64,000 nucleotides of DNA, taken from NCBI GenBank assembly GCA_965242865.1, contig CBDETK010000013.1, positions 5,455,427-5,519,426 on the forward strand. Direction: 5' to 3'. Both the position numbers and the translations under genes were made by a program. Of the stretch, positions 21,856 through 53,832 are shown piece after piece; within the stretch, counting starts at the first letter, position 1, and each line of letters begins with the position of its first letter. Source of the stretch: Candidatus Latescibacterota bacterium. GTDB lineage: Bacteria; Latescibacterota; UBA2968; UBA8231. The notes under the pieces are model-generated. The model saw only the letters and a program-made list of their open reading frames with translations, was not told the origin of the DNA and searched no databases.

Positions 21856-22065
21856 TTATCCGCGCTCCAGTTCGGCCGGATGCATGCTGAGATATTCACG
21901 AACCTCCAACTGCATTCGGTCGATCTCGGCGAGAAATCCCGCCACCGAGCCTCGGTAATTTTCAGGATGGGTTTCCACATTGCGTAGATGGGCTATTTGA
22001 CGCTGGAAATGCGCGATTCGCCCCAGAGTGACGTCGAGTTCGCGATCGTTTGCAATCATGGTCAT
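21856..22065 (-). CDS. small helical protein (69 aa) coupled to the upstream NTase
   Basis: Its ATG overlaps the NTase stop (ATGA at 22062-22065). Predicted helical, with no motif. Confidence 0.45.
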   Translation of the reverse strand: MTMIANDRELDVTLGRIAHFQRQIAHLRNVETHPENYRGSVAGFLAEIDRMQLEVREYLSMHPAELERG

Positions 22066-22502
22066 TCCCCCGTGATTTCAACGATGCCACGTTCAGTACC
22101 ATCGCGTTTGAGTTGCCAATCTTCGATGGCGGATTCTTCGCCACCGATGGCCGCCAAGCGGCGAACCCAGAACACACTACATCCAAAATGATCTTGGGCC
22201 GTTCCGTGATAGAACAGGAGTCGGGCTTCGCCGACTAGTGACCCCATATCGAAATTGTCATCCATAATCATGAAGATGTCCACATCGTTGGGTTCGTATT
22301 TTTCAGTAATAAACGAGCCGAATACGATGAATCGAGCTAGATAGCCAGTTTGCGCCGCGATCTGATAGATGCGTTCGAGGCGCATGGCAAGCAGCTTTCG
22401 GCGATGCGATCCCGTTCCAAAACGGCTGACTGTTTCGGCGAGCGAAGCCGTATAGACGCCAAAAGGAAGATCACCCATTGCGGTAAAGTCAGGTAGGGGC
22501 AT
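22062..22502 (-). CDS. minimal nucleotidyltransferase-fold protein (pol-beta superfamily)
   Basis: 146 aa. 'FIVFGSFITEKYEPNDVDIFMIMD' is the GS...DxD NTase motif. Confidence 0.65.
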   Translation of the reverse strand: MPLPDFTAMGDLPFGVYTASLAETVSRFGTGSHRRKLLAMRLERIYQIAAQTGYLARFIVFGSFITEKYEPNDVDIFMIMDDNFDMGSLVGEARLLFYHGTAQDHFGCSVFWVRRLAAIGGEESAIEDWQLKRDGTERGIVEITGE

Positions 22503-22642
22503 AGACCCTCCTGTTGATGAGAACCATTCTAATGAGACAGTCGGTTAGATCGTGCATCCCCGCGGCCAGCCCATTCCATCTTTCATCCCCCAAGGCCGTC
22601 GCTATACAGATTCCACGAAGATAAACAGTATTATTAGTTTAA

Positions 22643-25600
22643 TCACTCAGTTCCTGATTTTTGAACAATAAATGCTTTCATACCACCTGCATAGAATTGA
22701 ATTTGAACTTTATGACTTGACGATATACTAGTATCTATCATTGAATTTCTTTTTTTTAAGAAAAGAGGTATCTTATACTGAAGATCTATAATACGCACGT
22801 ATAATCTTTTTTTATATTTGACTATAACAGCATCAAATATCTCAGGATTACCTTCATCATCTTTCCAATAATCTTGCATACATAAGCTAGTTCTAAAACG
22901 TTGCTGAATTTTTCTCATGTGTCTCCTAAAATAAGAGAATTTTCTGTTATATGCTTCTGCGATACCCAAAAAGTAATGATATCTCATAGGGTCTTGTTCA
23001 AGTATAGGCCCATTAGAGCGAACTAAATCAAATAACTTAGATCGGCTGGCACTATGGTGTAAGTTACGCCCATAGTGCTGGAACAATAGCTTTGATACTT
23101 CATCTAAGTGAGTATATTTTTCAAGTTCACGCACCTTTGCACCTAAAGCATCCTCATCATTTTTCTGGGAGTAATAATAGAAGTATAAAATTAGGGCGTA
23201 TGGCTTTAAATCTTCTTTTTTATACAAGTCACTTATAAAATTGATATATTTTTCATCATTAGCAGAAGAAGAATGATGCTTTTTTCTATATCTGGCTTCT
23301 ATTTCGGCAATGGTTTCAATCCCTTCATGAAGCTGTCTTTTCGCTCGATCTAATAAATCTTCAATCGAAATTATACTACGCAATTCTGTTTCTTGGGTAA
23401 GAGAAAATGTTTCTAAATACCATATCTCAAACCGTAAGTATTCTCGGAAACTGTATATACTAAAGGGATCTTCTATCATTTTTATATAAAATAATTCCCT
23501 CGCTTCGTCAATATAAGGTTGTACTGCACTATGTATAACTTGCTCACGATCTAGCAACTGGGCTAGTTTAAAATTGAGAACTGCTCGTCGATGTGTTAAT
23601 CTGTGACTTCTTCGATATAAGAAACTTTCTGCATATATGATACGTTCGATGCCACGTTCTAAAGATTTCTGAGTTCCTCGGTATTGTAAATTTGTAGCGT
23701 AGTGAAGGTTGAAATGAGGATCATCAGAAAATTCATTTGCACATATATCATATAGATTATCAATCTTAGATTGTGTAAATTCTTCTGCCGTTATCATTGC
23801 TTTTAGTATATCTACAATTAAACGGGAATTATGAGGAGTATAAGTTAATTTTTTAAATATTTTTTGGTATTCCACAAATCTTTTATCTGAATCACTTAGA
23901 TACATCTCTATAAGTAAGTCTGAAATTACCGGATGACGAGTTCGAAAATATAGGTCGGGTTCATCTCCCGATATATTTTTTTCTTCTTGGACCAAAATTC
24001 CTTTTGCATCGTATTCTATGACGTCACGTTTGAATGTACCCCAATCTTTAGACACCAGTTTCATCAATAAACTGGAAGGCATTAAAATTTTGAATCTATA
24101 TAATAATGATGTATATAGAAATGACTCCTTAGCCTTTTCTGATAGTTGTTCATATGCGCTCCGTAATATCTGGTCATGATGTCCATCTGTAACTATGGAT
24201 AGCAGAGACACAAAAGCATCTCCTTTATAATCTCGAACAACCGTAGAGGCGAGAGAGTTTCTTTCTTTTTCATCTCTGACAGTGATAATCTTTGAGTCAT
24301 CTAATTTCTTAATCAGATCTGATGCTTCTTTTTTGTTAAAATTAGTATTGATCTCCAGTTGATGCAGGTTGGGATATGATCGGTTATGGGTTAATTTTTG
24401 TAGGATATTTTCCCTTATGGGAACCAGCATCACTATATTAGATCCAGAGAGTTGTTGTATGCTGAGATTCGACCGCAATTCAATCATTGATTTAAAGAAA
24501 CTGTCTACCTCACATTCATCAAATAGAAGCATGATATTTTCAGTGTCAACAGCACTGATTAGTTCACATAAATCTACTTCTCTAATATCTTGAGGCTCTA
24601 ATATCTCAAATACTGCTACATCTAAGTCAGAGTCAAGAATACTATGGACTAATCTATAGCAGAAAGTCGTTTTGCCGACACCATAGGATCCAGTTATTGC
24701 AATAATAGGAATTACAAATTCTTCAGAATTGAAAAATTGTTCTAATTTATTGATTATCTCTTTTTGACAATCTAATCTTATTACATCATAATTCTGCTTT
24801 ATCGCAAAATAAGATGGTCTTTCTCCCGTATAAAATTGCTCTGGTGAAATGTATTCAAATCTGGTATGTGGATTAATCTGGACAAGACTGCTTCCAAGCC
24901 TCTTAATAAGCCTATTAGATATATTTATGGGAGAACTGTCTTTTTGGCGAAACTGCGGTTTTCGCCTTCTTATAGCTGATTCTTCACTCGATTTTTCCCA
25001 ATCTTCATATTTTTGATAGAATTCAGAAGCAGTGCATTTTATAATTCTAATACTGCTGCTCTCAAGGTATGGTAGCATATCTTCCTGTATGGTGGGATCT
25101 ACCAATAGTATATCTCTCTTATTTCGGTAATTATATCGATCAAAACGATCAAGAAGAAATTTAGCAAACGGATCTCTAAATGAGTATCCAATCACGAGAA
25201 GTTGAATACGGGGCGAGATGTGTTCTAGGGCCTGTAACACTATCTTGTAAAAACCGTTAACGGATTCAAAATCTCTTGTTGAAAAAATGAATGGATATTT
25301 GGCTCTATCACTAATACAACCATTTAGCTTAATGTATTTTATCTCATCGTTTGCTGGATTGTAATGATATTCATGCAAATTTTTTGCAGGCTTCAGGATT
25401 TTATTTTCGTCCGATGTACTAAATACTCTATCAAAAGCCTTCTCAACTATAATATCCAAATTGGTCGTAATGATCTCTTTCCAAGGTAGGCGAGCAATTG
25501 TAGTATGAAATGCAGTGGGTTCTAGATTTCTAAGACATTTTTCTACTATATCATCAAACTCTTTGCGATCAAATTGAGGATTTCGACTAAGCACATCAAC

Positions 25601-25807
25601 ATATTCAATAATACTGTCGGTTTGATAACTATTTCCAGACTTTGCTTTGTGATAACCCATTAATTGACTACTTAGATACACATTATCATCGGTTATAGAA
25701 GCACCTGCGCCTAAGAACAGAATCGTATTACCCGATATGATATTAGGAAATATGTCTCTTCGTAAAGTTTCACTTCCTTTTTCTTGGACATCTGTTATAT
25801 GGTACAT
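22643..25807 (-). CDS. SIR2-like (SIR2_2) domain fused to a P-loop STAND-type NTPase and a long helical C-terminal region
   Basis: 1054 aa. N-terminus: 'ILFLGAGAS', 'ITTNLDIIVEKAF', 'IKLNGC' and 'VIGYSFRDP' (SIR2_2 pattern). Middle: Walker A 'ITGSYGVGKTT' and Walker B 'IMLLFDECEV'. Very AT-rich: line 22681 is 19/60 G+C, against 47/60 for line 20761 in the methylase. Confidence 0.82.
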   Translation of the reverse strand: MYHITDVQEKGSETLRRDIFPNIISGNTILFLGAGASITDDNVYLSSQLMGYHKAKSGNSYQTDSIIEYVDVLSRNPQFDRKEFDDIVEKCLRNLEPTAFHTTIARLPWKEIITTNLDIIVEKAFDRVFSTSDENKILKPAKNLHEYHYNPANDEIKYIKLNGCISDRAKYPFIFSTRDFESVNGFYKIVLQALEHISPRIQLLVIGYSFRDPFAKFLLDRFDRYNYRNKRDILLVDPTIQEDMLPYLESSSIRIIKCTASEFYQKYEDWEKSSEESAIRRRKPQFRQKDSSPINISNRLIKRLGSSLVQINPHTRFEYISPEQFYTGERPSYFAIKQNYDVIRLDCQKEIINKLEQFFNSEEFVIPIIAITGSYGVGKTTFCYRLVHSILDSDLDVAVFEILEPQDIREVDLCELISAVDTENIMLLFDECEVDSFFKSMIELRSNLSIQQLSGSNIVMLVPIRENILQKLTHNRSYPNLHQLEINTNFNKKEASDLIKKLDDSKIITVRDEKERNSLASTVVRDYKGDAFVSLLSIVTDGHHDQILRSAYEQLSEKAKESFLYTSLLYRFKILMPSSLLMKLVSKDWGTFKRDVIEYDAKGILVQEEKNISGDEPDLYFRTRHPVISDLLIEMYLSDSDKRFVEYQKIFKKLTYTPHNSRLIVDILKAMITAEEFTQSKIDNLYDICANEFSDDPHFNLHYATNLQYRGTQKSLERGIERIIYAESFLYRRSHRLTHRRAVLNFKLAQLLDREQVIHSAVQPYIDEARELFYIKMIEDPFSIYSFREYLRFEIWYLETFSLTQETELRSIISIEDLLDRAKRQLHEGIETIAEIEARYRKKHHSSSANDEKYINFISDLYKKEDLKPYALILYFYYYSQKNDEDALGAKVRELEKYTHLDEVSKLLFQHYGRNLHHSASRSKLFDLVRSNGPILEQDPMRYHYFLGIAEAYNRKFSYFRRHMRKIQQRFRTSLCMQDYWKDDEGNPEIFDAVIVKYKKRLYVRIIDLQYKIPLFLKKRNSMIDTSISSSHKVQIQFYAGGMKAFIVQKSGTE

Positions 25808-26078
25808 CTCAAATCCTTATAGTCTATATTGCGTTATAGATGGAAGTCATTGGGAACGGAAAAACGTATGATGACGCCCTTGTTCCTCGTGGTTCTACTT
25901 GGGAAATAAGTCTAGATTAGCCCATTCCAACGCTTTTTCTTCCCACAATCGAATTCGGCGTTTCGGACCACTTCTACTCAAGAAAACCTATCGCCCGCTC
26001 GTCCAAATATATCTATCATGTTCAAAATATCGTATCCTCTACACTAGGTCAAGTGTCTCCATAGTCGCCGCTATCGCA

Positions 26079-41138: not shown

Positions 41139-42776
41139 ATGCTCGCGCCCATTTTTGCCCTCCTGCTCGTCGGAGCCAGCACCCGGGCCGATCCCTTTTT
41201 CGTGGATGCGACGCGGGAAGCCGGCTTGGACCATCCCACCATCAGCGGCGGCCCGCACAAGCGCTTCATCCTCGAATCGATCGGCAGCGGCGCGGCGTTT
41301 TTCGACTACGACCGCGATGGCGACCTCGACCTGTACGTGGCCAATGGCTCGACCTACGCCAACTATGGCACAGGGCCGGGCAATGTGCTCTACCGCAACG
41401 ACGGCGGTGCCTTTGTGGCGCGGGTCGCCGGCGTGGAAGATTCGAGTTGGAGCATGGGAGTAGCGGTGGGGGATTACGACGGCGACGGGCAGCGCGATCT
41501 CTATGTGACCAACTACGGGGCGGACGCGCTCTATCGCAATCGCGGCGACGGCACCTTTGCCGCAGTCGCCGCGCCGCCCGGGGTTGCCGGCGATCGCTTC
41601 AGCACGAGCGCGGCGTTTTTCGACTACGACCGCGACGGCGACCTCGACCTGTACGTGGCCCATTACGTGATCTTCGACATTGAGCCGGTGCTGCAAGACC
41701 CGGAATTGGCAGACCCTTGCGTCTATTTGGGCGGGCTGCGGGTCTTTTGCGGGCCGCAGGGCATGGCGGGCGGGCGGGATCGGCTCTACCGCAACGACAG
41801 CGGCCGCTTTGCCGATGTCACGGTCGCGTCCGGCGTGGCCGAGGCCAATGCCCACTATGGCTTGGGCGTGGTGCCGGCCGACTTGGACCGCGACGGCGAC
41901 TTAGACCTGTTCGTGGCCAACGACGAGACGCCCAATGCGCTGTTCCGCAACGACGGCGGCCGCTTGATCGATGTAGCCTTGGCGGCCGGCGTGGCGTACA
42001 ACGGCGATGGCGAGGCCGAGGCGAGCATGGGGGTGGATGCGGCCGATTGCGACGGCGATGGCGATTTGGACCTGTATGTGACCAACTTCTACGGCGAGAC
42101 CAATACGCTCTATTTGAACTCGGGCGACGGAACCTTTATCGACGCCACGAGCGAGCGCGGCTTGGCCGCCCCTACGGTGGGCTATCTAGGTTGGGGGACG
42201 CGCTTTTTTGACTTCGACTTCGACGGCGACTTGGACCTGTTCGTTGCCAACGGCCACATCTATCCCCAAGTGGATCACGCCCAGGCCGGAGGCACGTATG
42301 CCCAGCGCAACCAGCTTTTTGCCAACGCGGGCCCGGGCGTCTTTGCTGCGGTGGAAGGGGCCGGTCCCGGGCTGCTGGTGCAAAAGTCGAGCCGGGCGGC
42401 CATCAGCGGCGACTACGACCAAGACGGCGATGTCGATCTGTTCACGACCAATATCGACGATAGCCCGACGCTCTTGCGCAACGAGACGCCCTCCGGTCGC
42501 TACCTCGTGGTGCAAATCGAACCGGAAGCCGTCGGCACTTGGGTGCGGCTGGTCGCGGGCGGGCGGACGCAGGTGCGGCAGGTCGGTGGGGCGGCGAGCT
42601 ATTTGGGCCACAGCGACGGGCGGCTCCACTTTGGCGTGGGCCGAGCCGAGCGCGTGGAACGCTTGGAGGTGGTGTGGCCCGATGGCGCGGTGACGCGGCG
42701 GGAGGATCTGCCGGTGGATGAGCTGGTGATCGCATATAAGGAGGGGAAATTGGGCCGTGTGCATAAGCGGCCGTGA
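41139..42776 (+). CDS. FG-GAP/VCBS repeat protein with ASPIC/UnbV C-terminal domain (CRTAC1 family)
   Basis: 545 aa with a signal peptide, repeated 'FFDYDRDGDLDLYVAN' units, and the C-terminus 'GGAASYLGHSDGRLHFGVG...VEVVWPDG'. It starts at the nucleotide following the FGE-gene stop. Confidence 0.87.
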   Translation: MLAPIFALLLVGASTRADPFFVDATREAGLDHPTISGGPHKRFILESIGSGAAFFDYDRDGDLDLYVANGSTYANYGTGPGNVLYRNDGGAFVARVAGVEDSSWSMGVAVGDYDGDGQRDLYVTNYGADALYRNRGDGTFAAVAAPPGVAGDRFSTSAAFFDYDRDGDLDLYVAHYVIFDIEPVLQDPELADPCVYLGGLRVFCGPQGMAGGRDRLYRNDSGRFADVTVASGVAEANAHYGLGVVPADLDRDGDLDLFVANDETPNALFRNDGGRLIDVALAAGVAYNGDGEAEASMGVDAADCDGDGDLDLYVTNFYGETNTLYLNSGDGTFIDATSERGLAAPTVGYLGWGTRFFDFDFDGDLDLFVANGHIYPQVDHAQAGGTYAQRNQLFANAGPGVFAAVEGAGPGLLVQKSSRAAISGDYDQDGDVDLFTTNIDDSPTLLRNETPSGRYLVVQIEPEAVGTWVRLVAGGRTQVRQVGGAASYLGHSDGRLHFGVGRAERVERLEVVWPDGAVTRREDLPVDELVIAYKEGKLGRVHKRP

Positions 42777-43014
42777 CGAAGGTGCTGCTCGCCTTGCTCG
42801 ATGGCCCAACACCGGCGACTTTGCTGGCCATATCAACGGCGTCTAGCGTATTATAAGGGTGTCAACAAAAACGAGGATTTTCCTAGAAACCTGAAGGAAC
42901 AATCATGCAACGGCCTCGCAGCTACAAAAACCCGCCTATATAGCAATTCTAAATTATTCAAGAGATGTTATATATTGCTGTAATTCCTACTTCTTTGGAG
43001 CTATCCAAATTACC

Positions 43015-46000
43015 ATGAAGCCACTCTACTTTACCGCCTGTGCTCCTCATCCAAAGGTCGCGCCTGCCTTAGCGTCCCAAGTCCAGGAAAGCCTACGTCC
43101 TTACACTGCGTATCTGAGATCTGCGCTTGATGCTGCTAAAAAGCGCGAGTCGCGGTCTGTGTGTCGGTGGGAGCCTGTCCCGCAAGAGTATCCACTTCGA
43201 ATTACCCCTATGGACTCGCTCTTGGCAGTGGAAGCCGAGGGGTATAACTACCGGCTCGAAGGCTGGTCGGGCGACGCGCCGGATATGCCGTTATTCGTCG
43301 GAGACCAGTACCGGCCGATGGTCCCCAAGCGCGTTGAGCGAGTTGACGACGGATTGCTCCTCGTTCTAGACAGCGAGGTTGACCCGGACGACCGGATATT
43401 CTGGGAGGGCGAGCCTTGCACATTAACGCCCGCAGAGTCGATCTGGCCGGCTAAGTTGGTTGCACGGCGCGACGACGGTACCGTCGCGTCCCTGTTCCAA
43501 CGCAGGGAAGAAGCCAAGCGCGTTGTTTTGGTCGTAGAGGGCTGTGCTCCTGTTGTTCTCGAGGACGAGCGTGGCACCGAGCTACCCCATCGGGTGACCG
43601 AGCCACATGAAGGTGCCACGCGCCTTCGCGTCGGCAGAGAGGAGATTTCTTGGAACGGTCAACGAACCCTGACGCTGGAGGAACCGCCAGACCAAGACTT
43701 TCTCCTCGCCGACAACGGCGTCCGGTGGGCGTGGGCGGACGACGGTGGACGTGGGCGGCGACAGCGCGGGGTCTGGATTCAACTCCTGCCCCCTGACGAG
43801 GTGGATAGCGAGGCGGCCTTGGATATTCGGACAGCATACATGGAGGAAGGCGTTCGCGAAGTCCGTACGAAAAAAGGCAACAACCCGCAGCATGCCTTCA
43901 AGGTTTGGGGATTCCAGCGCGATAATTATCGGCTCGAATTAGATCGGCTCCCACCCGAGGGATCGACATTTTTCATCCCGTCCAGCACTTCGGGCCTACA
44001 ACGCCAGCGGCAGGCAGTGTTCCGTTTTAAGGACAACCCACTGCCCCACCACGGCCCTCTCCTAAGGCTTTGTGAAGCACCGGATAAGGTCCATTGGCCA
44101 AAGTTCCGACCAAAGGAAAAGGACGTTTCCCACTGGTATTTGCTCAACGACGAGCATTGGTGGGGCACTAGCCAGCAACGGGAGTTCGTAGAAAAGGCCC
44201 TTGGTACGCCGGACTTCGCGTTTCTCGAAGGGCCGCCTGGGTCGGGTAAAACCCATGCCATTTGTGAGTTGGTGCTCCAGTTCATCGACCGGGGACTGAA
44301 TGTGTTGCTCTGCTCTACGACCCATGTCGCCGTGGACAACGTACTGGAGCGACTCGTCGGTGATGGCGAGTTTGAGCAAGTTGAAGCCGTGCGGATCGGG
44401 CTTGCAGACCGAGTGGACCAAACCATCCGCACTGTACAGATTGATGAACGCATCTCGGCCTTGGTGGAGACTTGGCGTGACGTTGGAACCTTCGCCGACT
44501 TGGATACCGCCGACTTGGAGCGAGTCGCCGAGGCGACAATCCTCTCGTCCGTGAACCTGACGTGCGGCACCTCCACAGGCATCCTCGCGCATCCCTACAT
44601 CCGCCGGTCAGACGCCGGGCGCGACAACGATACCGGCCCGAGTTGGCCCTACTTTGATGTTTTGATCATTGACGAGGCCAGCAAGACGACCTTCCAAGAA
44701 TTTCTGGTCCCCGCCCAACTCGCCCGCAAGTGGATCGTAGTCGGCGATGTGCGGCAACTGCCTCCCTTCTCTGAGCCTAAAGATCTCGAAGCGAGTATTG
44801 CCGAAGTCAGCGACGCGAACGACGCAATGCTCTCGGACGCCCAGCAAGCGGCACTGCTGATCTTGTTCCGCCTCCAACGACCGGAAGCGGGGGTTAGACG
44901 GGTCAGATGGTTGATTGAGGAGTCGAACGATGTGCTTGATGCGCTTAGTGCGGAAATCGAGGCTCGGACCCACACACCCGAGATCGTGCGCGTTGTCCAA
45001 GGCCGGTCCGTGGGGAATAAAGTATCCATCGCCGATATTGAGGCCGGTCAACCTGTGGCACTGCATTTATTAGCGGCCGATTGGATTCTCTTTCCACCTA
45101 AGTTGCGAAATCGCCTCGCGCCTTATCTGCCGCCGGATGGGCTTGCGTTGCGCGACTGGGGCCCGGATTCTGCCCGTGCGTACCAATTTGTACGCTGGCT
45201 TGAGCAACGAGGCCGCTTCAAAAATCCCGTGCGAGAGCAACGGCGTCAGTTCCAAACTGCCGATGAGTTGGCTGCCCGCCAGCGGGGTTTTCTGCGCGAG
45301 GAGTCTTGGGCCAAGCAGGTATCGTGGCGGCTTGGGAGGGTTCATCAACTTGCCAGTGCTCGAGACGAGCGACAGAGTAAACGACGCCAAGATGAAGTTG
45401 ATAGCCTTATGCCCGCCGTGGAACCCTACTCTAAATGGGTGCCCCTAGCCATTGACGCAATCCGAGATGTCGGAGTTCGCAGTGTAATTGAGTCCTTCCG
45501 GGTGCGTAGGAGCAACCATCGGGTTCGCCGCCTGAGCGCCCTCACCGAGGCACTTCCAACGCATGTTTGGAATGAGCGGGCGGTACTGATCGAGTACCAG
45601 CACCGTATGCACCCGGACATCTCAAAGTTTCCGAGAGAGCAGTTCTATGAGGGAGTGGCACTGAAGGACGCAAACACCCTTGATGGGCGCGACAAACGGG
45701 ACGGTTGGTCCTTCATGCCCAAGGTGCCCGCACGACGAGTGTGGGTGGATGTGCGTGGCCACGAGGAACGCGGCGTCAACCAAGCTGAGATCAAAGCTAT
45801 GCAGAGTTGGTTGGAGACTTGGCGGGATTACGCTAAAACTCACCCGAGAACCGATGGCAAGCCTTGGACAGTGGCCTGCCTCTCGTTCTACCATCGGCAG
45901 GAATTGGAGACGCGAAACATGCTCCGGCGACTCACCAGAGTGCAGCGTGCGGAGACGCGCTTCGCGCTTCCCAACACGACGATTGTATGCGCGACGGTTG

Positions 46001-46215
46001 ACCGCTTCCAAGGCCGAGAGGCCGACCTCGTGTTGCTGAGTCTCAGAAACACCTCTCGACCAGGGCACATGGACAGCCCCAATAGGCTCAATGTCGGGGT
46101 CACTCGCGCCCGGTTTCTGCTCGTCATCTTAGGTCGCCGGAAGTACTTCGCCGATTGTCCATCCGAGGAACTCAACGCGCTTGCAAACGCCACGCCGTTG
46201 TTCAGTCTTGCTTGA
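43015..46215 (+). CDS. Upf1/DNA2-like superfamily 1B helicase (AAA_11/AAA_12) with an about 380-aa unknown N-terminal region
   Basis: 1066 aa. Motif I 'LEGPPGSGKTH', II 'VLIIDEASK', III 'VVGDVRQLPPF', 'EYQHRMHPDISKFPREQFY', V 'TVDRFQGREADLV' and VI 'RLNVGVTRAR'. Confidence 0.88.
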   Translation: MKPLYFTACAPHPKVAPALASQVQESLRPYTAYLRSALDAAKKRESRSVCRWEPVPQEYPLRITPMDSLLAVEAEGYNYRLEGWSGDAPDMPLFVGDQYRPMVPKRVERVDDGLLLVLDSEVDPDDRIFWEGEPCTLTPAESIWPAKLVARRDDGTVASLFQRREEAKRVVLVVEGCAPVVLEDERGTELPHRVTEPHEGATRLRVGREEISWNGQRTLTLEEPPDQDFLLADNGVRWAWADDGGRGRRQRGVWIQLLPPDEVDSEAALDIRTAYMEEGVREVRTKKGNNPQHAFKVWGFQRDNYRLELDRLPPEGSTFFIPSSTSGLQRQRQAVFRFKDNPLPHHGPLLRLCEAPDKVHWPKFRPKEKDVSHWYLLNDEHWWGTSQQREFVEKALGTPDFAFLEGPPGSGKTHAICELVLQFIDRGLNVLLCSTTHVAVDNVLERLVGDGEFEQVEAVRIGLADRVDQTIRTVQIDERISALVETWRDVGTFADLDTADLERVAEATILSSVNLTCGTSTGILAHPYIRRSDAGRDNDTGPSWPYFDVLIIDEASKTTFQEFLVPAQLARKWIVVGDVRQLPPFSEPKDLEASIAEVSDANDAMLSDAQQAALLILFRLQRPEAGVRRVRWLIEESNDVLDALSAEIEARTHTPEIVRVVQGRSVGNKVSIADIEAGQPVALHLLAADWILFPPKLRNRLAPYLPPDGLALRDWGPDSARAYQFVRWLEQRGRFKNPVREQRRQFQTADELAARQRGFLREESWAKQVSWRLGRVHQLASARDERQSKRRQDEVDSLMPAVEPYSKWVPLAIDAIRDVGVRSVIESFRVRRSNHRVRRLSALTEALPTHVWNERAVLIEYQHRMHPDISKFPREQFYEGVALKDANTLDGRDKRDGWSFMPKVPARRVWVDVRGHEERGVNQAEIKAMQSWLETWRDYAKTHPRTDGKPWTVACLSFYHRQELETRNMLRRLTRVQRAETRFALPNTTIVCATVDRFQGREADLVLLSLRNTSRPGHMDSPNRLNVGVTRARFLLVILGRRKYFADCPSEELNALANATPLFSLA

Positions 46216-46224
46216 AAGGAAACA

Positions 46225-47328
46225 ATGAAAGCTAGCCTCAAAAAAGAAGTCGAGATTCGAGACATCGCGGTATTTGCAGAACTCGCCGTATGGGAGGAGA
46301 GACCGGACCTTCAGAGCCTGTGCGTCGCGGCTCAGGATCAAGGTGTCCTCAACGAGGCCGCGGTTGATACCGTCCTACCGGGGCTGTCGCCGCGTGCTCA
46401 GAAGAACCTGTTGCGCCACTTGGGCTACATTCAACTTGTTGATCAAAACGGAGCACTGACCGCCCTCGGACGCCGTTGTGCATCGTCGGGCGAGGCCCCG
46501 GCTTGGGAGCAGGGTGTATATCGCCTGCTCGTGGCATCCCATCCTCTCTTTGATAGCCATGTCCTCGATTTCAGACGCGCCCCCGGCGATTGGCGCGACC
46601 GCGACTTTGACAACCACGAGCCGCTTCCGGCAGGGGTCTCGGCTAAACGCGACAGGGTGTTCACGTCGGTATTCCAGTCTAAGCGATTCAACGTATCGAA
46701 GTTTCCGGCAGCACAAGGCCAAAATCCGGTCTGCCGCATTGAAGGTACGACCAAGGGAACGTTGCAGTGGGATATCGACCTCGCGTCGGGCGACAACGAG
46801 TGGACGATTGAAGGACAGGTGAGCGGAGATAGGAACCGGCGCGGCAAGTTCCAGTCCGCGCCTGAGTCGGTGGAGCCGGATGAGTTGGTCGATATTTTCG
46901 CGGACTGGGAGCCGCAGCACTGGGATGTGCGAATGGGTCGCCTCGCCATGGCGTATGACGGCAAGATTGGGCAGGGCGGACGCGAGTCGTTTCTGCGGTC
47001 CCGGAAGTACAAAAATAAGCAGGTCAAGAGTTTTGGCTCGTTTGATGAGGTCGTAGTCCGAGATGTACCGGTCGGCCCGGCGACGAAGGAGGATGCTCGT
47101 ACTTGGGCAACTGCCATCCTCATCGCTCAAGCCAAGGCCGAGGACAAATACATAGTGCCCGACACTTATCAGTCGGATTGGTCAAACATTATCGACGGTA
47201 CTCCACTGGCAAAGTGGGCTGGGGATGCCCCCGATCCGGTGGCACTCTCCGAGGTGAACGGTCGCCCCCTCGCTGACCGGATGAGGTGGTTGCTCGCCGC
47301 GGGGACCGATCTAGAAATGGAGGCATGA
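46225..47328 (+). CDS. hypothetical protein (367 aa), possible N-terminal winged-helix
   Basis: The ATG lies 9 nt after the helicase stop, with AAGGAAA upstream. 'SPRAQKNLLRHLGYIQLVDQNGALTALGRR' looks wHTH-like. The rest is unrecognised. Confidence 0.6.
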   Translation: MKASLKKEVEIRDIAVFAELAVWEERPDLQSLCVAAQDQGVLNEAAVDTVLPGLSPRAQKNLLRHLGYIQLVDQNGALTALGRRCASSGEAPAWEQGVYRLLVASHPLFDSHVLDFRRAPGDWRDRDFDNHEPLPAGVSAKRDRVFTSVFQSKRFNVSKFPAAQGQNPVCRIEGTTKGTLQWDIDLASGDNEWTIEGQVSGDRNRRGKFQSAPESVEPDELVDIFADWEPQHWDVRMGRLAMAYDGKIGQGGRESFLRSRKYKNKQVKSFGSFDEVVVRDVPVGPATKEDARTWATAILIAQAKAEDKYIVPDTYQSDWSNIIDGTPLAKWAGDAPDPVALSEVNGRPLADRMRWLLAAGTDLEMEA

Positions 47329-49229
47329 TGCGTCGCGGACCGATTCAACCCGAAGATAAACAGGAATGGATTGACCAGAGGGAGAAAGAGCTTTCGCTTT
47401 GGGAGCAGGGCAAGAAGGGTACGCAAATTGACCTTCCTTGGACCGAATTGAGCAGCCCCGACTCCCTCAATGATGTGCAGTCGCTCGTGGCGAATGCTCG
47501 TAGCGTCATCCTTGCCATCGGTACGACAACAACCTCGCGCAAATTGATTGACGCTGTCTTACAATATCTTCCTGCACAATGCCGGCTCTATGTTTACGGA
47601 GCTAGTGACCTTGAGACCGAATTGGTTCAAAAGATCGCGGGCATGGGCGACCGAGTCCTCGCTCGCTTGGGGCACCGTCCACCTGCCGACTGGCTCATCG
47701 TTGATAAAGGGCGCGCCGGACGCCTTATCGTAGGGCCTACCGCCGAGCACCAAAAATGGGTGCTCCCCGTCAGCGGCGACTTAGCAAGATCGCTGTTCGA
47801 GGCATTTTGTGTGCTATTCTGGTTTCACGCAACGAGCGAAGCCCTGCCGGACGATAACGGCAATGTCGCCTTCCGGCCTCCGCTGGCGGCTCCGTTCAAA
47901 GACCCCGGTCCCGACATCCCACTCCCGGCTGGTCGGCTCCTCCTTGGCGGAGAACTCGACGATCCAGTTTCTGACGCCGAGTTCCGAATTTCACCGAACG
48001 CTTCGGATCCCGGACATGCGCGGGTGCTGTTCATCCCTCCCACTGACGACCTGGCGAGCGGCGGGACAGGTCGCCCTGTCGATCTCGAGCTTCCGACGGC
48101 ACTCTGTCGCCGGGGTCACCGAGTGCTGTGGGTTGATACCGGTCTTCCGAGGACGACGGTTACACGTCAGCGCATGGTTATGAACCTCGTGGAAGCCCCG
48201 ATTGCACTCCAAATTGAATGGCCAGCCGCCACAGCAATAGACTTCCTCCACCGTTTTGAACGTGCGGCGAAACAACCCGCTTGGGAGTTCCATCCAGCGC
48301 GGCGGCTCGACGCTATTAAGGGCGAGGTGCTACTGAACGGGGCGACGCAACCCGCCAAGATCGCTCCCTCTGTCTCGCTGGACGCTGGCGATGTGGACGC
48401 ACCACTGCTGGACTTCGACTCTGCCCGCCCCGCTCGCTTGCCCGATGTCCCGCCCCTCGCCTTGGAAGCGGCTATCAAGTGGCGACTAGTACCGGCTACT
48501 TTGCCGCGGGGTGCCCGCCGCGCCGAGATCGTCCGCCACTGGACAGCGGTGGATGAGTGGACATCGCGGACAGTGGAAAGCCTCCGCGATGCGCTTGACG
48601 AACTTGAGAACCAAGAAGGACTGTTGAGCAAACTTCGCCAATGGCTTCCTTCTCGGGATGGGAACTCGGCCTTGGAACGCGAAAAACTACGCGACGAACT
48701 TGACGACCTCGGCGAATCGCCCCCAAGTCAGATAGCGGCCCAAGCCGAGGAGCGCATGACACGCCTCGCCGCGGTCGTCAACCGTTTGGATGGACTGCGG
48801 CGTACCACTCACGACCAGCAACAGGACGCCGAGGACGCCAAGGCTGAAGACGCCCAGCGAGACATTTGGAAAAAGCGCGTCGAAGATGCCAAGACCAAGC
48901 TGGAAGAAATTCGACAGAAGTTGGCGGAGAATGAGATAGCCCAAGGCGAGGCGGCGGAAAAACGGCAAAAGATCGAGAAACTGGGTCGTGTTGCATCGGA
49001 AGAATTTCGTTTCAAGAAACCGCCTCGACTTGCAACTCCAGCAACGAGCGAGGTGGATTCGCACCCGCCGATTCCGTCAGAAGCACCTCCTGAGATAGGG
49101 GAGCTCTACGAACATGGCGAAAAGCGTTTTCTCGCCATTCGCACATGGGAACAACTTAGGCCGGCGCAGTCTGTTGCGAGGCGGCTTCGGGCCGAACCCG
49201 TGGTTGCTACAAACCCTTCAAAAGTGTAA
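47325..49229 (+). CDS. hypothetical protein (about 634 aa) with a C-terminal coiled-coil, charged region
   Basis: The ATG at 47325 overlaps the upstream stop (ATGA). The C-terminal third is E/K/R/Q/A-rich (..DAEDAKAEDAQRDIWKKRVEDAKTKLEEIRQKLAENE..). No catalytic motif recognised. Confidence 0.6.
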   Translation: MMRRGPIQPEDKQEWIDQREKELSLWEQGKKGTQIDLPWTELSSPDSLNDVQSLVANARSVILAIGTTTTSRKLIDAVLQYLPAQCRLYVYGASDLETELVQKIAGMGDRVLARLGHRPPADWLIVDKGRAGRLIVGPTAEHQKWVLPVSGDLARSLFEAFCVLFWFHATSEALPDDNGNVAFRPPLAAPFKDPGPDIPLPAGRLLLGGELDDPVSDAEFRISPNASDPGHARVLFIPPTDDLASGGTGRPVDLELPTALCRRGHRVLWVDTGLPRTTVTRQRMVMNLVEAPIALQIEWPAATAIDFLHRFERAAKQPAWEFHPARRLDAIKGEVLLNGATQPAKIAPSVSLDAGDVDAPLLDFDSARPARLPDVPPLALEAAIKWRLVPATLPRGARRAEIVRHWTAVDEWTSRTVESLRDALDELENQEGLLSKLRQWLPSRDGNSALEREKLRDELDDLGESPPSQIAAQAEERMTRLAAVVNRLDGLRRTTHDQQQDAEDAKAEDAQRDIWKKRVEDAKTKLEEIRQKLAENEIAQGEAAEKRQKIEKLGRVASEEFRFKKPPRLATPATSEVDSHPPIPSEAPPEIGELYEHGEKRFLAIRTWEQLRPAQSVARRLRAEPVVATNPSKV

Positions 49230-49272
49230 TACGTCACAGCATTCACACGGAGTCCAAACAAGGAGAAAATCA

Positions 49273-50001
49273 ATGGAACACGAAGAAACCATGGAACCCA
49301 AACTTCCAGGAGGGCCAATCGCAAACAGGCCACTCCATTTCATTTTCCTCGCAGACTGCTCGTACTCGATGTCAGGCGAGAAAATTCAAGCACTCAACCA
49401 CGCGATTAAAGAGGCCATTCCGCACATGCGGGATGTCGCAGAAGGCAATCCGAACGCCGAGGTTTTGGTGCGGGCGATCGAGTTCTCGTCCGGTGCCCAG
49501 TGGCATATTCCGCAACCGACGAATGTCGATGTGTTTGAGTGGAACGACCTCTCGGCCAACGGCTCGACTTCAATGGGACGCGCTCTGTCTCTGGTTACTG
49601 AGGCACTCAAGACCCCGCCCATGCCGGAGCGTGCGCTACCTCCCGTGCTGGTGCTCATCAGTGACGGACAGCCCACGGACGACTTCAATGGGGGGCTTCA
49701 AGCATTGATGGCCGAGCCTTGGGGCACGAAGGCCGTGCGCCTCGCTATCGCCATTGGCGCAGACGCGGATATCGATGTTCTCCAACGCTTCATCGGGCAT
49801 GCAGAAATCCAACCGCTGCAAGCCAACAACGCTCAAGATTTGGTCAATTATATCCGCTGGGCATCCACCGCAGTTTTGCAGGCCGCCTCCGCGCCAGCGA
49901 GCCAGACGCAGAGTGCTCCGGCCGGGGTCAATGTGCCGTTGCCTCCACCGCCGAAACCCGATCCGAAATCCGGGCCGACGGATGCCAATGATGTCTGGTA
50001 G
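49273..50001 (+). CDS. TerY-like von Willebrand factor A (vWA) domain protein
   Basis: The ATG at 49273 is preceded by AAGGAGAA. MIDAS 'FLADCSYSMSG' (DxSxS), 'GSTSMG' and 'LISDGQPTD'. Confidence 0.85.
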   Translation: MEHEETMEPKLPGGPIANRPLHFIFLADCSYSMSGEKIQALNHAIKEAIPHMRDVAEGNPNAEVLVRAIEFSSGAQWHIPQPTNVDVFEWNDLSANGSTSMGRALSLVTEALKTPPMPERALPPVLVLISDGQPTDDFNGGLQALMAEPWGTKAVRLAIAIGADADIDVLQRFIGHAEIQPLQANNAQDLVNYIRWASTAVLQAASAPASQTQSAPAGVNVPLPPPPKPDPKSGPTDANDVW

Positions 50002-50953
50002 CCACGAAATAGACGCGAGACCAAGCCGACGACCCGGATTCGCCATTGAGCGGGTAATCGGTGCAAACCACCTGCGATCTGGCAAGCCCTGCCAAGACGA
50101 GGCAGGGCTTTGGATGGTGGCCGACACTGTGGCCCTTGCCATCGCTGACGGTCATGGTTCGAGCAAACACGCCGACATCGGTGCCCGCCTCGCAGTCCAA
50201 GTGGCTCTTACCGCGCTCGTGCGATTCGCCGAGGACTTGGGTGAGCGCACTTCAAACCTGAGCGAAGTCCAGAAATACGCCGAGCATCCACTCCGCGTTC
50301 AGATCGTCCGGGAATGGAAAGAGAGAGTCCACACCAAGTCTGGAGACAGTGAAACACCACTCGTGGATTATGGCTCGACACTCTTGGTCGCTTTAGCAAC
50401 GCCGGACTTTTTACTCGTTGGACAACTCGGTGATGGCGATATACTACTCGTCAACGAGGCTGGTACAGTTGATGTCCCACTACCTGCTGACCCGGAGGCG
50501 TTTGCCGACGAGACTCCTAGCCTGTGTCTCCCAGAAGCCGAGCACTCATTTCGTCTGCGAGTCCTGCCGACACCGAAGCAAGAGACGCTTCTCCTGCTCT
50601 CGACCGATGGGTACAGCAAGTCGTACCCCACGGACGCCGCGTTCAAGGAGATCGGCCCGGATTATCTCGACCTCATACGCAAGGATGGGGTCGCCAAATT
50701 GACCCTTCTCTTGAGGGGCTTTCTCGAGGCGGTTACTAATCAGGGGAGTGGTGATGACATCGCCCTCGCGCTTCTCCACTGGTCGCCACCAGCGAGCCAG
50801 ACTGCTATGGATTCTTCTAACGCATCGTCGGGGCAGGATGGAATAGTACAGCGGATTCGAGCCAAAATTGGGGCATTCATTGGGAACAAGAACGAAACTC
50901 AAAATAATGGAGAAATTGCCAATGCAAAAACCAGAACTACTGAAGACCGCTGA
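49988..50953 (+). CDS. PP2C-family protein phosphatase
   Basis: 'ALAIADGHGSSKH', 'VGQLGDGD', 'LSTDGY' and 'GSGDDIALALL', the PP2C metal-binding Asp motifs. The start overlaps the end of vWA by 14 nt. Confidence 0.85.
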   Translation: MMSGSHEIDARPSRRPGFAIERVIGANHLRSGKPCQDEAGLWMVADTVALAIADGHGSSKHADIGARLAVQVALTALVRFAEDLGERTSNLSEVQKYAEHPLRVQIVREWKERVHTKSGDSETPLVDYGSTLLVALATPDFLLVGQLGDGDILLVNEAGTVDVPLPADPEAFADETPSLCLPEAEHSFRLRVLPTPKQETLLLLSTDGYSKSYPTDAAFKEIGPDYLDLIRKDGVAKLTLLLRGFLEAVTNQGSGDDIALALLHWSPPASQTAMDSSNASSGQDGIVQRIRAKIGAFIGNKNETQNNGEIANAKTRTTEDR

Positions 50954-52214
50954 TGGAACGCGCATCATCGCCGACACCCTGCTTGGTCAAGGGGGCCAAG
51001 GCGAGGTCTGGAAAGCCACTGATGGCGGGAAGTCTGTCGCGGTGAAGGTCTATCACCGAGATACGGCGACTACAGAACAAAAAGAGGGACTCGAGCGGTT
51101 GGTTGAAAAAGGCTCGCCTGCGCCCTGTTTTTTGTGGCCGATGGCGATGGTAGCGGATACTCAATCAGAGAGATATGGCTACATCATGCCCATCCGGGAG
51201 CCTAACTTTCGAGGACTGGAAGACTTCATGGCGCGGCGGATCCGCCCATCAATGCGTGCATTGCTCACGGCAGGCAGGAAACTCGCGGATGGATTTCTCC
51301 GCCTCCACAGTCGAGGTCTCTGCTATCGGGACATTTCCTTCGCCAATGTATTCTTTGATCCGAAGACCGGCGATATCCTCATCTGCGACAACGACAATGT
51401 TGACATAACGGGATCCGAAACGGGCGGTGTGCTGGGGACCCAGCGTTTTATGGCCCCCGAGGTGGTTCGGAGAGAGGCGGCCCCATCTGCTGATACGGAT
51501 CGCTACTCGCTGGCAGTACTGCTGTTTTTTCTTTTGTACGGTGGTCATCCCCTTGACGGTCAACTGGAAGCGAACATTCGCTGCCTCGATGTTCCCGCCT
51601 TGGAGAGTCTCTATGGGTCTGACCCGCTTTACATCTGGGATCCGAGCGACGATTCCAACCGTCCTGTCCCCGGCATTCACAACAACCCCATCGCCTTTCG
51701 CCACATGTACCCTGAAACGCTGGCAACCCTGTTTCAACGGTCATTCACGGACGGATTGCACTACCCATCCAAACGTGTGCGCGAGTCGGAGTGGAGGAAG
51801 GCTTTCGCGAGCACCATCGACAGTATCTGGCTGTGCGAGTGCAGTGCTGAAAACTTCTATGAGCCTGCGGTCGTGGCATCGTCTGGCGGCAAGCACTGCT
51901 GGTCATGCAAGAAGCCGCTGGTCCTCCCACCGCGCATTCGGATTGACGACGACATCGTCTTGCTCAATCGCACTACCCAACTGTTCGGCTACCATGTTGG
52001 TCAGACCCGCGACGATACCCCAATCGCGGAAGTCGTTCAGAACCCCCAAGTTCCGAACCTTTTCGGCTTGCGAAACCTGACCGCAGAGAAGTGGACACTG
52101 ACCAAGCCGGACGGGTCGGTGGTTGATGTTCCGCCTGACCGTGCAGCACCGATTCTCAACGGCAACCGCATCAACTTCGGGCCGCAAACGGGAGAGGTGC
52201 GAGTACAGTCCTAA
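50922..52214 (+). CDS. Ser/Thr protein kinase with C-terminal Cys-pair (Zn-ribbon-like) and beta-rich (FHA-like?) extension
   Basis: 'LLGQGGQGEVWKA...VAVKVY' (G-loop and Lys), 'CYRDISFANVFF' (catalytic loop), 'ICDNDN' (DFG-equivalent) and 'GTQRFMAPEV' (APE). C-terminus 'CECSAEN...CWSCKKP'. The start could be 50907 or 50922; GGAGA lies 8 nt before 50922. Confidence 0.85.
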   Translation: MQKPELLKTADGTRIIADTLLGQGGQGEVWKATDGGKSVAVKVYHRDTATTEQKEGLERLVEKGSPAPCFLWPMAMVADTQSERYGYIMPIREPNFRGLEDFMARRIRPSMRALLTAGRKLADGFLRLHSRGLCYRDISFANVFFDPKTGDILICDNDNVDITGSETGGVLGTQRFMAPEVVRREAAPSADTDRYSLAVLLFFLLYGGHPLDGQLEANIRCLDVPALESLYGSDPLYIWDPSDDSNRPVPGIHNNPIAFRHMYPETLATLFQRSFTDGLHYPSKRVRESEWRKAFASTIDSIWLCECSAENFYEPAVVASSGGKHCWSCKKPLVLPPRIRIDDDIVLLNRTTQLFGYHVGQTRDDTPIAEVVQNPQVPNLFGLRNLTAEKWTLTKPDGSVVDVPPDRAAPILNGNRINFGPQTGEVRVQS

Positions 52215-52407
52215 GATGTCGGACAGTCAGTCGCGAGGACACACTGCTTAGACCGCCGGGATATATGTCGCTGGCGGCTCAGCTTTGGGCTTTGAGACGC
52301 AACAATCGCACCGGCCCACCGGCCCCCCCAACCGCTCCTTGTGCCGCGTCACGCAGCGGCGTAACTTATGCAAAAAGCAAGACTTACCCAACACAGGAGC
52401 TTCCGCC

Positions 52408-53832
52408 ATGACGCCTCCCAACATTCTCTGGATCTGCACGGATCAGCAACGCTACGACACCATCGGCGCACTCGGTTATACCCACGTCGATACGCCGCAT
52501 GTCGATCGGCTGGTCGCCGAGGGCGTGGCCTTTACTCGCGCCTATTGTCAAAGCCCGATCTGCACGCCGAGCCGGGCGAGTTTTCTCACTGGCCAGTACG
52601 CCAGCGCCGTCCACATCAATGGCAATGGCCTCGATAGTTTTCCCGGGCACCCGCCGCTGGTCACGCGGCTGTTGGCCGAGGCCGGGTACGACTGCGGGCT
52701 GATTGGCAAGCTGCACTTGGCCAGCGCCCATCGCCGCATTGAGCCGCGCGTCAACGACGGGTATCGCTATTGGGAATACAGCCACGCGCCCCGCGACGAC
52801 TGGCCGCAGGGGCACGGCTATGCCGATTGGGTGCGGGAAAAGGGGGAAGTTTTAGGCGAGTTGATGAAGCAATATCCCTGCGGATTGCCGGCCGAATTCC
52901 ACCAGACGACGTGGTGCGCCGAGAAGACCATTGAGTTTATGAGCCAAAAGCGCGATGGCCCTTGGCTGGCCAGCGTCAATATCTACGACCCCCACCCGCC
53001 GTTCAATCCGCCGCAGAGCTACCGCGACCGCTTTGACCCAGCGACCATGCCCGGGCCGCTGTTTGCCGACAGCGACTTGGCGCAGCAGGAAAAGCTAGCG
53101 GCGATTGACTTCCAGTCCAAGGGGCGGCGGCCCGACCAACTCGACATCCGCGACCCCTTGCACCAAGACCGCCCGACGCCCGGGGCGGACGCGCACGTGT
53201 TGCAGGCGGCGTACTGCGCGATGATCAAGCAAATTGACGACCAAGTGGGCCGGATGCTGGCCGCGCTCGAAGACGCGGGCCAGCGCGACAATACCGTGGT
53301 GATTTTTACCTCTGACCACGGCGAAATGCTCGGCGACCACGGGCTGATCCAAAAGGGGTGCCGCTTTTACGAGGGCTTGGTGCGGGTGCCGCTGATTTTT
53401 TCTTGGCCGGGGCACTTTGAGCAGGGCTTGGTGCGCGGCGATCTGGTCGAGCTGACCGATAAAGCACCGACGCTGCTGGAGCTAGCCGGGCTGGAGGTGC
53501 CGGAGCGGATGACCGGCCGCTCGCTCGGGCCGATTTTGCGCGGCGAAAGCGCGGCCCCACACCGCGACTTCGTCCGTTGCGAGTACTACGACGCGTTGGC
53601 CGCGCCCGATGGCACCTTTGCCACCATGTACCGCGACGAGCGCTACAAGTTGGTGCTCTACCACGGGCACGGTTTGGGCGAGCTATACGACTTGGACGAA
53701 GACCCCGGCGAGTTCGAGAACATGTGGGATGAGCCGCAAGCGCAGCCGCTCAAGCTGGAACTGATGCAAAAGAGCTTCGACGCTTCGATGCTGGCGATGG
53801 ACCGGGGGCCCCGGCGCGTCGGGCCGATGTGA
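52408..53832 (+). CDS. sulfatase (formylglycine-dependent, arylsulfatase-like)
   Basis: 'PNILWICTDQQRYD' and 'SPICTPSRASFLTGQY' (C-x-P-x-R formylglycine motif), plus 'FTSDHGEMLGDHG'. The ATG at 52408 has AGGAG upstream. Confidence 0.9.
   Translation: MTPPNILWICTDQQRYDTIGALGYTHVDTPHVDRLVAEGVAFTRAYCQSPICTPSRASFLTGQYASAVHINGNGLDSFPGHPPLVTRLLAEAGYDCGLIGKLHLASAHRRIEPRVNDGYRYWEYSHAPRDDWPQGHGYADWVREKGEVLGELMKQYPCGLPAEFHQTTWCAEKTIEFMSQKRDGPWLASVNIYDPHPPFNPPQSYRDRFDPATMPGPLFADSDLAQQEKLAAIDFQSKGRRPDQLDIRDPLHQDRPTPGADAHVLQAAYCAMIKQIDDQVGRMLAALEDAGQRDNTVVIFTSDHGEMLGDHGLIQKGCRFYEGLVRVPLIFSWPGHFEQGLVRGDLVELTDKAPTLLELAGLEVPERMTGRSLGPILRGESAAPHRDFVRCEYYDALAAPDGTFATMYRDERYKLVLYHGHGLGELYDLDEDPGEFENMWDEPQAQPLKLELMQKSFDASMLAMDRGPRRVGPM

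Follow-up and report, generated by a model that had tools for sequence, protein, structure and literature searches.

Which function is served by two sizeable unannotated proteins encoded between a UPF1-like helicase and a TerY-P gene triad is the question raised by a 64-kb stretch of a Candidatus Latescibacterota bacterium genome (assembly GCA_965242865.1, contig CBDETK010000013.1, positions 5,455,427 to 5,519,426; hereafter the window). The two open reading frames (ORFs) of unknown function, here named A and B, exist as a first-pass annotation of the window described them, and neither gave any match in Pfam, NCBIfam or PADLOC, even at an E-value of 10. On balance, and with confidence a little above even, A is taken here to be an adaptor and B a pseudo-nuclease serving as sensor or scaffold, in a defence-type system related to Mokosh and CoCoNuT; mechanistic details beyond these two roles are held with much lower confidence. 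The evidence lies in the phospholipase D (PLD) fold of B, in plasmid operons which carry an HKD-type PLD in the same position, in the recurrence of the A module in many protein clusters, and in a sister system with the same three-gene core. The parts of A and B, in window coordinates, are as follows.

46225..47328, + strand: protein A, 367 aa, predicted adaptor module with an embedded winged helix (AlphaFold2 (AF2) model, hidden Markov model (HMM) clusters, hhalign)
46297..46494, + strand: winged helix-turn-helix (wHTH) of A, residues 25-90
47325..49229, + strand: protein B, 634 aa, HKD-less tandem PLD, coiled coil and C-terminal domain (AF2 model, alignments A3 and A7)
47430..48359, + strand: two-lobed PLD fold of B, residues ~36-345 (lobe 1 ~39-175)
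48525..48995, + strand: coiled-coil region of B, residues 401-557 (long helices in the AF2 model; in-frame gap in alignment A1)
49062..49214, + strand: conserved C-terminal tail and small alpha/beta domain of B, residues ~580-630 (conservation, AF2 model)

Protein B Has a Phospholipase D Fold without the HKD Residues

The AF2 model of B, built with 73 sequences (pLDDT, the predicted score for the local distance difference test, 89), contains a two-lobed alpha/beta PLD fold, which places B in the PLD superfamily at the level of fold, followed by long helices at residues 401-557 and by a small alpha/beta domain of strands and a helix at residues 593-627. The three-part layout which had been read from the letters, a globular half followed by a coiled coil and a short tail, is therefore found again in the model. 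The C-terminal tail is the most conserved part between the B family and a sister family described below, with P584, P589, G592, L594, R601, L603, W608, A618, R620 and L621 as its conserved residues. Searches of the PDB with HMM profiles of A, B and the N-terminal half of B returned coiled-coil noise or nothing.

The relatives that retain a complete PLD were found on plasmids of Vibrio rumoiensis, V. aerogenes and Pontibrevibacter nitratireducens, and they surfaced only with the helicase as probe, as tblastn of A and B against plasmids gave no match. These operons (L062 512-7340, L064 546-7371 and L063 8599-15162) are ordered helicase, A-like protein, PLD and RtcR-type CARF-AAA+-HTH protein, annotated as helicase, hypothetical protein, PLD-like protein and sigma-54 regulator, and their helicases are 33-39% identical to the window helicase. 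Over its full length, the hypothetical protein of 365-369 aa is homologous to A (hhalign 99.9%, E 4e-31, 342 columns). The PLD protein (506-510 aa) has two canonical HKD motifs (PLDc_2 8e-27) and, among PADLOC models, matches DrmC strongly and MkoB weakly (2.7e-11); it aligns with B residues 13-398 (hhalign 96.4%, E 1.1e-9, 359 columns), an alignment that is significant only when both sides are family alignments. Neither B against a single plasmid PLD sequence nor B against a small Nuc-like PLD alignment was significant in hhalign. The V. aerogenes operon was also observed to lie ~2 kb from cas2/cas1.

In the profile alignment, the His, Lys and Asn of the lobe 1 HKD motif correspond to P120, D122 and P138 of B, and the His and Lys of lobe 2 to D271 and G273, with the second Asn falling in a gap; the first Asp (D127) is the only HKD residue that B retains. 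Alignment A3 (73 sequences) and the sister-family sequences of alignment A7 have no conserved His or Lys where the HKD motifs would lie, and the motif taken as the mark of an active PLD, HxK(x)4D(x)6G(S/T)xN in each lobe, is absent from B. The first-pass annotation had noticed in B a faintly PLD-like segment without the HxK lysine and had left it uncalled; that remark was apt, in that B is homologous to HKD PLDs and has the HKD His and Lys replaced. Because this homology to the plasmid HKD PLD goes together with substitution or deletion of the HKD His, Lys and Asn, B appears to derive from the PLD effector of such operons, with its activity lost and a coiled coil added. A role as classical effector is unlikely for B since the catalytic HKD residues are gone; of the "effector or sensor" put forward earlier for A and B, sensor or scaffold is the better half. 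The expectation of novel domains in the two proteins was not borne out, as the N-terminal half of B adopts the known tandem PLD fold, with an HKD relative in the same slot, and the A module recurs widely (see below).

The homologue alignments did yield conserved residues. R87, Y89, R114, W166 and E172 are invariant in the 73 B sequences, and four of them (R87, Y89, R114 and E172) stay unchanged in both B families despite ~24% identity. Length is more variable: window B has ~115 coiled-coil residues fewer than most homologues (~748 aa), in-frame in alignment A1, and the difference was placed at window position 48969 (B residue ~548). Short B forms of 584-670 aa recur in distant lineages at 44-58% identity, relatives 91-95% identical to window B include both short (P0003) and long (P0002) forms, and an independent sponge-metagenome contig covers the short form gap-free. 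Because short forms recur and this contig is gapless, the short coiled coil looks like length variation rather than damage. One sponge-metagenome contig (run X5; window 48733 and 48995) tracks the window to 48733 and then enters what appears to be the middle of the coding sequence of the von Willebrand factor A (vWA) protein, a jump which reflects either a deletion or a chimeric assembly.

Protein A Contains a Recurrent Module with a Winged Helix

The AF2 model of A (pLDDT 94, predicted template modelling score (pTM) 0.85) consists of a winged helix on a long beta-ribbon, followed by a beta-rich domain. A wHTH-like stretch near the N-terminus had already been pointed out, and residues 25-90 of the model indeed form a wHTH, with a three-helix bundle and a beta wing. 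Foldseek of the predicted structure against the PDB, which had been recommended as a check, gave no significant match; a wide structure search (VIA) listed the wHTH alone, and the ESM Atlas gave no usable match for residues 91-367.

A profile search of 1.84 billion representatives found the A module in 554 clusters, where it occurs as a standalone protein of ~365 aa, together with a ~190-aa C-terminal alpha/beta domain bearing the motifs CDRYV, PHDRYLLV and WQMSNS, or, in two distant relatives, downstream of an N-terminal HEPN-type segment (P0332 and P0334, both with an Rx4-6H motif and the former with a weak, sub-threshold HEPN_Swt1 match). Window A carries no HEPN RNase domain, as it has no Pfam match and stops after the adaptor module. 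Looking for fusions of A above 1034 aa yielded nothing, a result of little evidential weight. Across the A superfamily, G82, G97, G197, W233, P285, A291, W294 and W355 are near-invariant and structural-looking, R26, E95, R118 and D362 are also near-invariant, and the superfamily alignment contains no catalytic-looking residue cluster. From these profile comparisons, A is best described as a recurrent adaptor module, not a novel domain. By description, it may correspond to the "elongated wHTH" protein that accompanies UPF1-like helicases in CoCoNuT relatives (PMC11090510).

A Sister System Shares the Helicase, A and B

Sister loci were found in metagenomes by using the long A form (L017-L045, e.g., L036 5037-14986). 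They encode a classical AAA+ ATPase, a helicase, the long A, a B-like protein, a DUF1257 protein and a small radical-SAM protein (Fer4_12). The sister helicase is 40% identical to the window helicase over its full length, and the B-like protein is ~25% identical, likewise without HKD and with the same C-terminal domain, while the sister A carries the extra ~190-aa C-terminal domain. No TerY-P genes were found in these loci by tblastn. Since the sister loci keep the helicase, A and B without TerY-P, these three proteins constitute the conserved core, and TerY-P is one of several alternative accessory modules.

Two assignments were considered for the ~190-aa domain of sister A. A HEPN domain, prompted by Rx4-6H strings, was rejected, as the Arg varies and the segment appears to be of alpha/beta type; a PLD-like domain, with HDR and SNS as its motifs, had a weak Atlas lead only (MIT_C, 13% of one cluster) and no hhalign support.

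The Six-Gene Cassette and Its Conservation

A and B lie within a cassette of six genes, in which the helicase precedes them and the TerY-P triad follows.

42982..52330, + strand: whole mobile cassette, approximate insertion limits (homology boundaries against related genomes)
43015..46215, + strand: UPF1-like superfamily 1 (SF1) helicase, MkoA/CnuH-like, 1066 aa (Pfam AAA_11 and AAA_12; PADLOC MkoA 1e-73)
49273..50001, + strand: TerY-type vWA protein with an intact metal ion-dependent adhesion site (MIDAS) motif (Pfam VWA_2 and VWA; motifs DCSYS, GSTS and SDG in the translation)
49982..50953, + strand: PP2C phosphatase (Pfam PP2C_2, 8.5e-44)
50910..52214, start uncertain (50868, 50910 or 50922), + strand: Ser/Thr kinase with C-terminal Cys pairs (Pfam Pkinase 5.9e-19)

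The translations of the helicase, vWA, PP2C and kinase genes all keep their catalytic motifs, including Walker A (GPPGSGKT) and Walker B (DEAS) in the helicase. The helicase matches two MkoA-type PADLOC models (PDLC03920 1.1e-73 and PDLC03921 2.9e-46), and its closest PDB relatives are SEN1, SMUBP-2, UPF1 and DNA2. The vWA, PP2C and kinase genes, assigned by Pfam, are consecutive and overlapping, as in a TerY-P triad. The kinase matches PADLOC PD-T4-6 and mad6 and also the N-terminal kinase part of the MkoA model (1e-8), and no PADLOC model matched the vWA and PP2C proteins. A sulfatase gene and then an FdhD gene lie downstream of the kinase, and a promoter and terminator scan gave counts at the level of chance. 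No RNA run was listed as containing this stretch.

In a set of 5.8 billion proteins, 133 homologues of A and 85 of B were found, and a scan of one genome per species returned 16 loci, from Latescibacterota, Gammaproteobacteria, Myxococcota/Polyangia, Planctomycetota and Alphaproteobacteria. A and B are intact and syntenic across these 16 genomes, and the order helicase, A, B, vWA, PP2C, kinase is identical, without stops, in every locus that is long enough. A and B are genuine conserved genes, not chance ORFs, and the poor conservation or frequent disruption named beforehand as grounds for dropping them was not encountered. Both diverge faster than the enzymes of the cassette; for example, identities between locus L016 and the window are 42% for A and 37% for B, with 57% for the helicase, 75% for vWA, 53% for PP2C and 62% for the kinase. 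An all-against-all comparison of the ORFs of the 16 loci found nothing conserved beyond the six genes and, therefore, no McrBC companion genes.

Tight coupling within the helicase/TerY-P operon, as proposed in the first-pass annotation, is upheld, but the ATGA which had been assigned to the junction with the helicase belongs to that of A and B, where the ATG of B overlaps the stop of A. The helicase stop codon (46213-46215) is separated from the ATG of A by 9 nt in the window. Across loci, a 4-nt overlap is present at the helicase/A junction in 11 of 15 and at the A/B junction in 8 of 16, and the remaining junctions range from -1 to +8 nt.

An Integration Hotspot Upstream of a Sulfatase Gene

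Of 168 genomes of the phylum, 6 carry B, as do 3 of the 31 from the genus. All same-genus genomes have the sulfatase gene, and the slot directly upstream of it varies: it holds the cassette alone in G139, an AAA_15/21 ATPase and HNH pair followed by the cassette in G141, and McrB with McrC in G137. In G131, the sulfatase has the left-flank DUF362 gene directly at it or no more than ~3.5 kb away, which leaves the slot empty or nearly so, and the same apparently holds for G130, G136 and G142 as judged from the position of the DUF362 gene. Homology between the window and the cassette-bearing G139 begins at 42982, and homology to all relatives, including those without the cassette, resumes at ~52330, just upstream of the sulfatase. 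The slot is an integration hotspot in this genus, and the cassette is mobile and situated at a defence-hotspot location.

On the left side, an FG-GAP/ASPIC gene (41139-42776) adjoins the cassette; in other genomes of the genus it lies far from the sulfatase locus. As this gene is displaced and the expected left-flank DUF362 gene is absent from the 64-kb window, the left side has either been rearranged or is part of a very large variable region. In G137, ~350 bp covering the region upstream of the sulfatase and its 5' end are directly duplicated and flank the insert (the upstream region and first ~270 nt of the gene, window 52330-52680; duplicate comparison L058 14071-14419 vs 15162 onward), and in G124, G145 and G125 part of the sulfatase 5' end is similarly repeated upstream of the full gene. 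These duplicates look like a recombination scar. Elsewhere in the window, GC content falls to 0.35-0.39 at 22001-26000, compared with ~0.6 in the rest.

Possible Mechanism and Alternative Explanations

The six-gene cassette is probably an anti-phage system. A and B would be the non-enzymatic core partners of the UPF1-like helicase, and the three proteins, made in a fixed ratio via overlapping stops and starts, might form a nucleic-acid surveillance complex. A may tie the helicase to B as an adaptor, in keeping with a module that goes along with helicases of this clade and, in relatives, carries or neighbours an effector; the dead PLD cleft and the wHTH might bind RNA or single-stranded DNA without cutting, and the coiled coil of B could dimerise or space the complex. 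The vWA/PP2C/kinase triad would then read or set the state of the complex as a regulatory or output switch, with phosphorylation-driven growth arrest or helicase control, not PLD cleavage, as the potential output. A bolder extension, which is put forward only tentatively and is more doubtful, is that a distinct immune family is built around the helicase, A and B, in which a PLD nuclease has been turned into a non-catalytic nucleic-acid reader on a coiled-coil stalk and output passes through interchangeable signalling modules (kinase/phosphatase/vWA here; AAA+ and radical-SAM in the sister system). If true, this would be a documented effector-to-sensor conversion within a defence system.

Several points weigh against an adaptor and pseudo-nuclease in a defence system. 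The contacts between helicase and A, A and B, B and vWA, and B and kinase are all ones that we infer; residues 91-367 of A, which have no assigned fold, could hide an enzyme; the N-terminal ~290 residues of the helicase fall outside the match to the plasmid helicases; and no toxic effector can be recognised in the cassette, an unusual lack in a defence system. That otherwise non-obvious effector would be supplied by B if it were still an active nuclease or phosphodiesterase, with a new catalytic set on the PLD scaffold (e.g., R87-x-Y89 and R114, with Tyr or water as nucleophile) and with the helicase feeding substrate as in Mokosh, a possibility to which the invariance of R87, Y89, R114 and E172 in both B families and the active-type PLD in the ancestral operon slot lend some weight. 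It is nevertheless considered unlikely, as Pro, Asp, Gly or a gap stands in place of all six key HKD residues (H, K and N of both lobes), B shows no evident motif for a metal site or a nucleophile, and B matches HKD-less PLD folds as well as it does active nucleases. To our knowledge, such HKD-less folds act in binding or as scaffolds, examples being FAM83 DUF1669, the TrmB sugar-binding domain and vaccinia F13.

The effector might instead be sought in A, with the beta-rich residues 91-367 as an unrecognised toxin or nuclease and B as its regulator, but this is the least probable of the explanations weighed here, as its near-invariant residues are mostly structural-looking without a catalytic-looking cluster, and relatives which add domains to the A module or encode a neighbouring PLD fit an adaptor better. 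The lack of a recognisable toxin, together with the role of UPF1-like helicases in RNA surveillance, would also suit a cassette that does not confer immunity but serves in stress response or RNA quality control, TerY-P being a metal or stress switch that governs the RNA helicase; a patchy distribution across phyla, discrete insertion into a slot otherwise holding McrBC or an ATPase and HNH pair, kinship to Mokosh-type helicases and PLD defence proteins, and fast-evolving non-enzymatic parts make this quite improbable. If the cassette does defend against phages, it would indicate that a PLD partner can work by binding, not cutting, and it would offer a clean system for what TerY-P triads sense and phosphorylate.

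Comparison with Known Systems

A literature search found no description of this gene arrangement and no system name for the sister arrangement; the sister loci were not scanned directly against PADLOC. Among systems described so far, type I Mokosh consists of an MkoA helicase with a kinase part and an MkoB PLD. The cassette resembles it in that its helicase matches MkoA, its separate kinase matches the kinase part of the MkoA model and a PLD-fold partner is present. It differs in that B has no MkoB match up to an E-value of 10 and is without HKD, and hence is no MkoB, the kinase is a separate gene, and A, vWA and PP2C are additional. The pairing of helicase and nuclease in Mokosh and CoCoNuT has been likened to the animal piRNA pair MOV10L1/PLD6 (bioRxiv 10.1101/2022.12.12.520048).

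Typically, the gene that follows a helicase of this clade encodes CnuE, in which an elongated wHTH is joined to an effector (Bell et al., eLife 2024, PMC11090510). Such helicases have been reported together with an elongated-wHTH protein and TerY-P, and CoCoNuTs of types II and III-A include TerY-P (PMC11090510). With CoCoNuT, the cassette shares a UPF1-like helicase, followed by a wHTH protein that may be of the elongated type (CnuE being compared by description), as well as a coiled coil and a TerY-P triad with a zinc-ribbon-like kinase tail. The CnuE of type III-C combines wHTH, coiled coil and two PLD domains but is reported never to occur with TerY-P (PMC11090510), whereas the cassette pairs TerY-P with a PLD-type partner. 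Unlike CoCoNuT, none of the 16 loci has CnuB/CnuC (McrB/McrC), the window having sulfatase and FdhD downstream; the cassette is without HEPN, the wHTH module and the PLD/coiled-coil protein are on separate genes, and the PLD appears to be inactivated.

As for B itself, the DUF1669 of FAM83, the C-terminal domain of TrmB/TrmBL2 and vaccinia F13 are likewise HKD-less PLD folds, without sequence relationship to B, and their ligands (a kinase; sugars or DNA; a membrane) say nothing certain on the ligand of B.

In the plasmid operons, the first three genes stand in the same order as the helicase, A and B of the cassette. Their PLD keeps both HKD motifs and is without a coiled coil, and their fourth gene encodes the RtcR-type CARF-AAA+-HTH protein where the cassette has the TerY-P triad. 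Compared with the helicase-nuclease pairs of Mokosh and CoCoNuT, the cassette would have kept the helicase, adaptor and PLD scaffold, with the nuclease chemistry removed and a kinase switch added. The three arrangements, an active PLD on plasmids, a dead PLD with AAA+ and radical SAM, and a dead PLD with TerY-P, could serve as natural controls in experiments on such a role.

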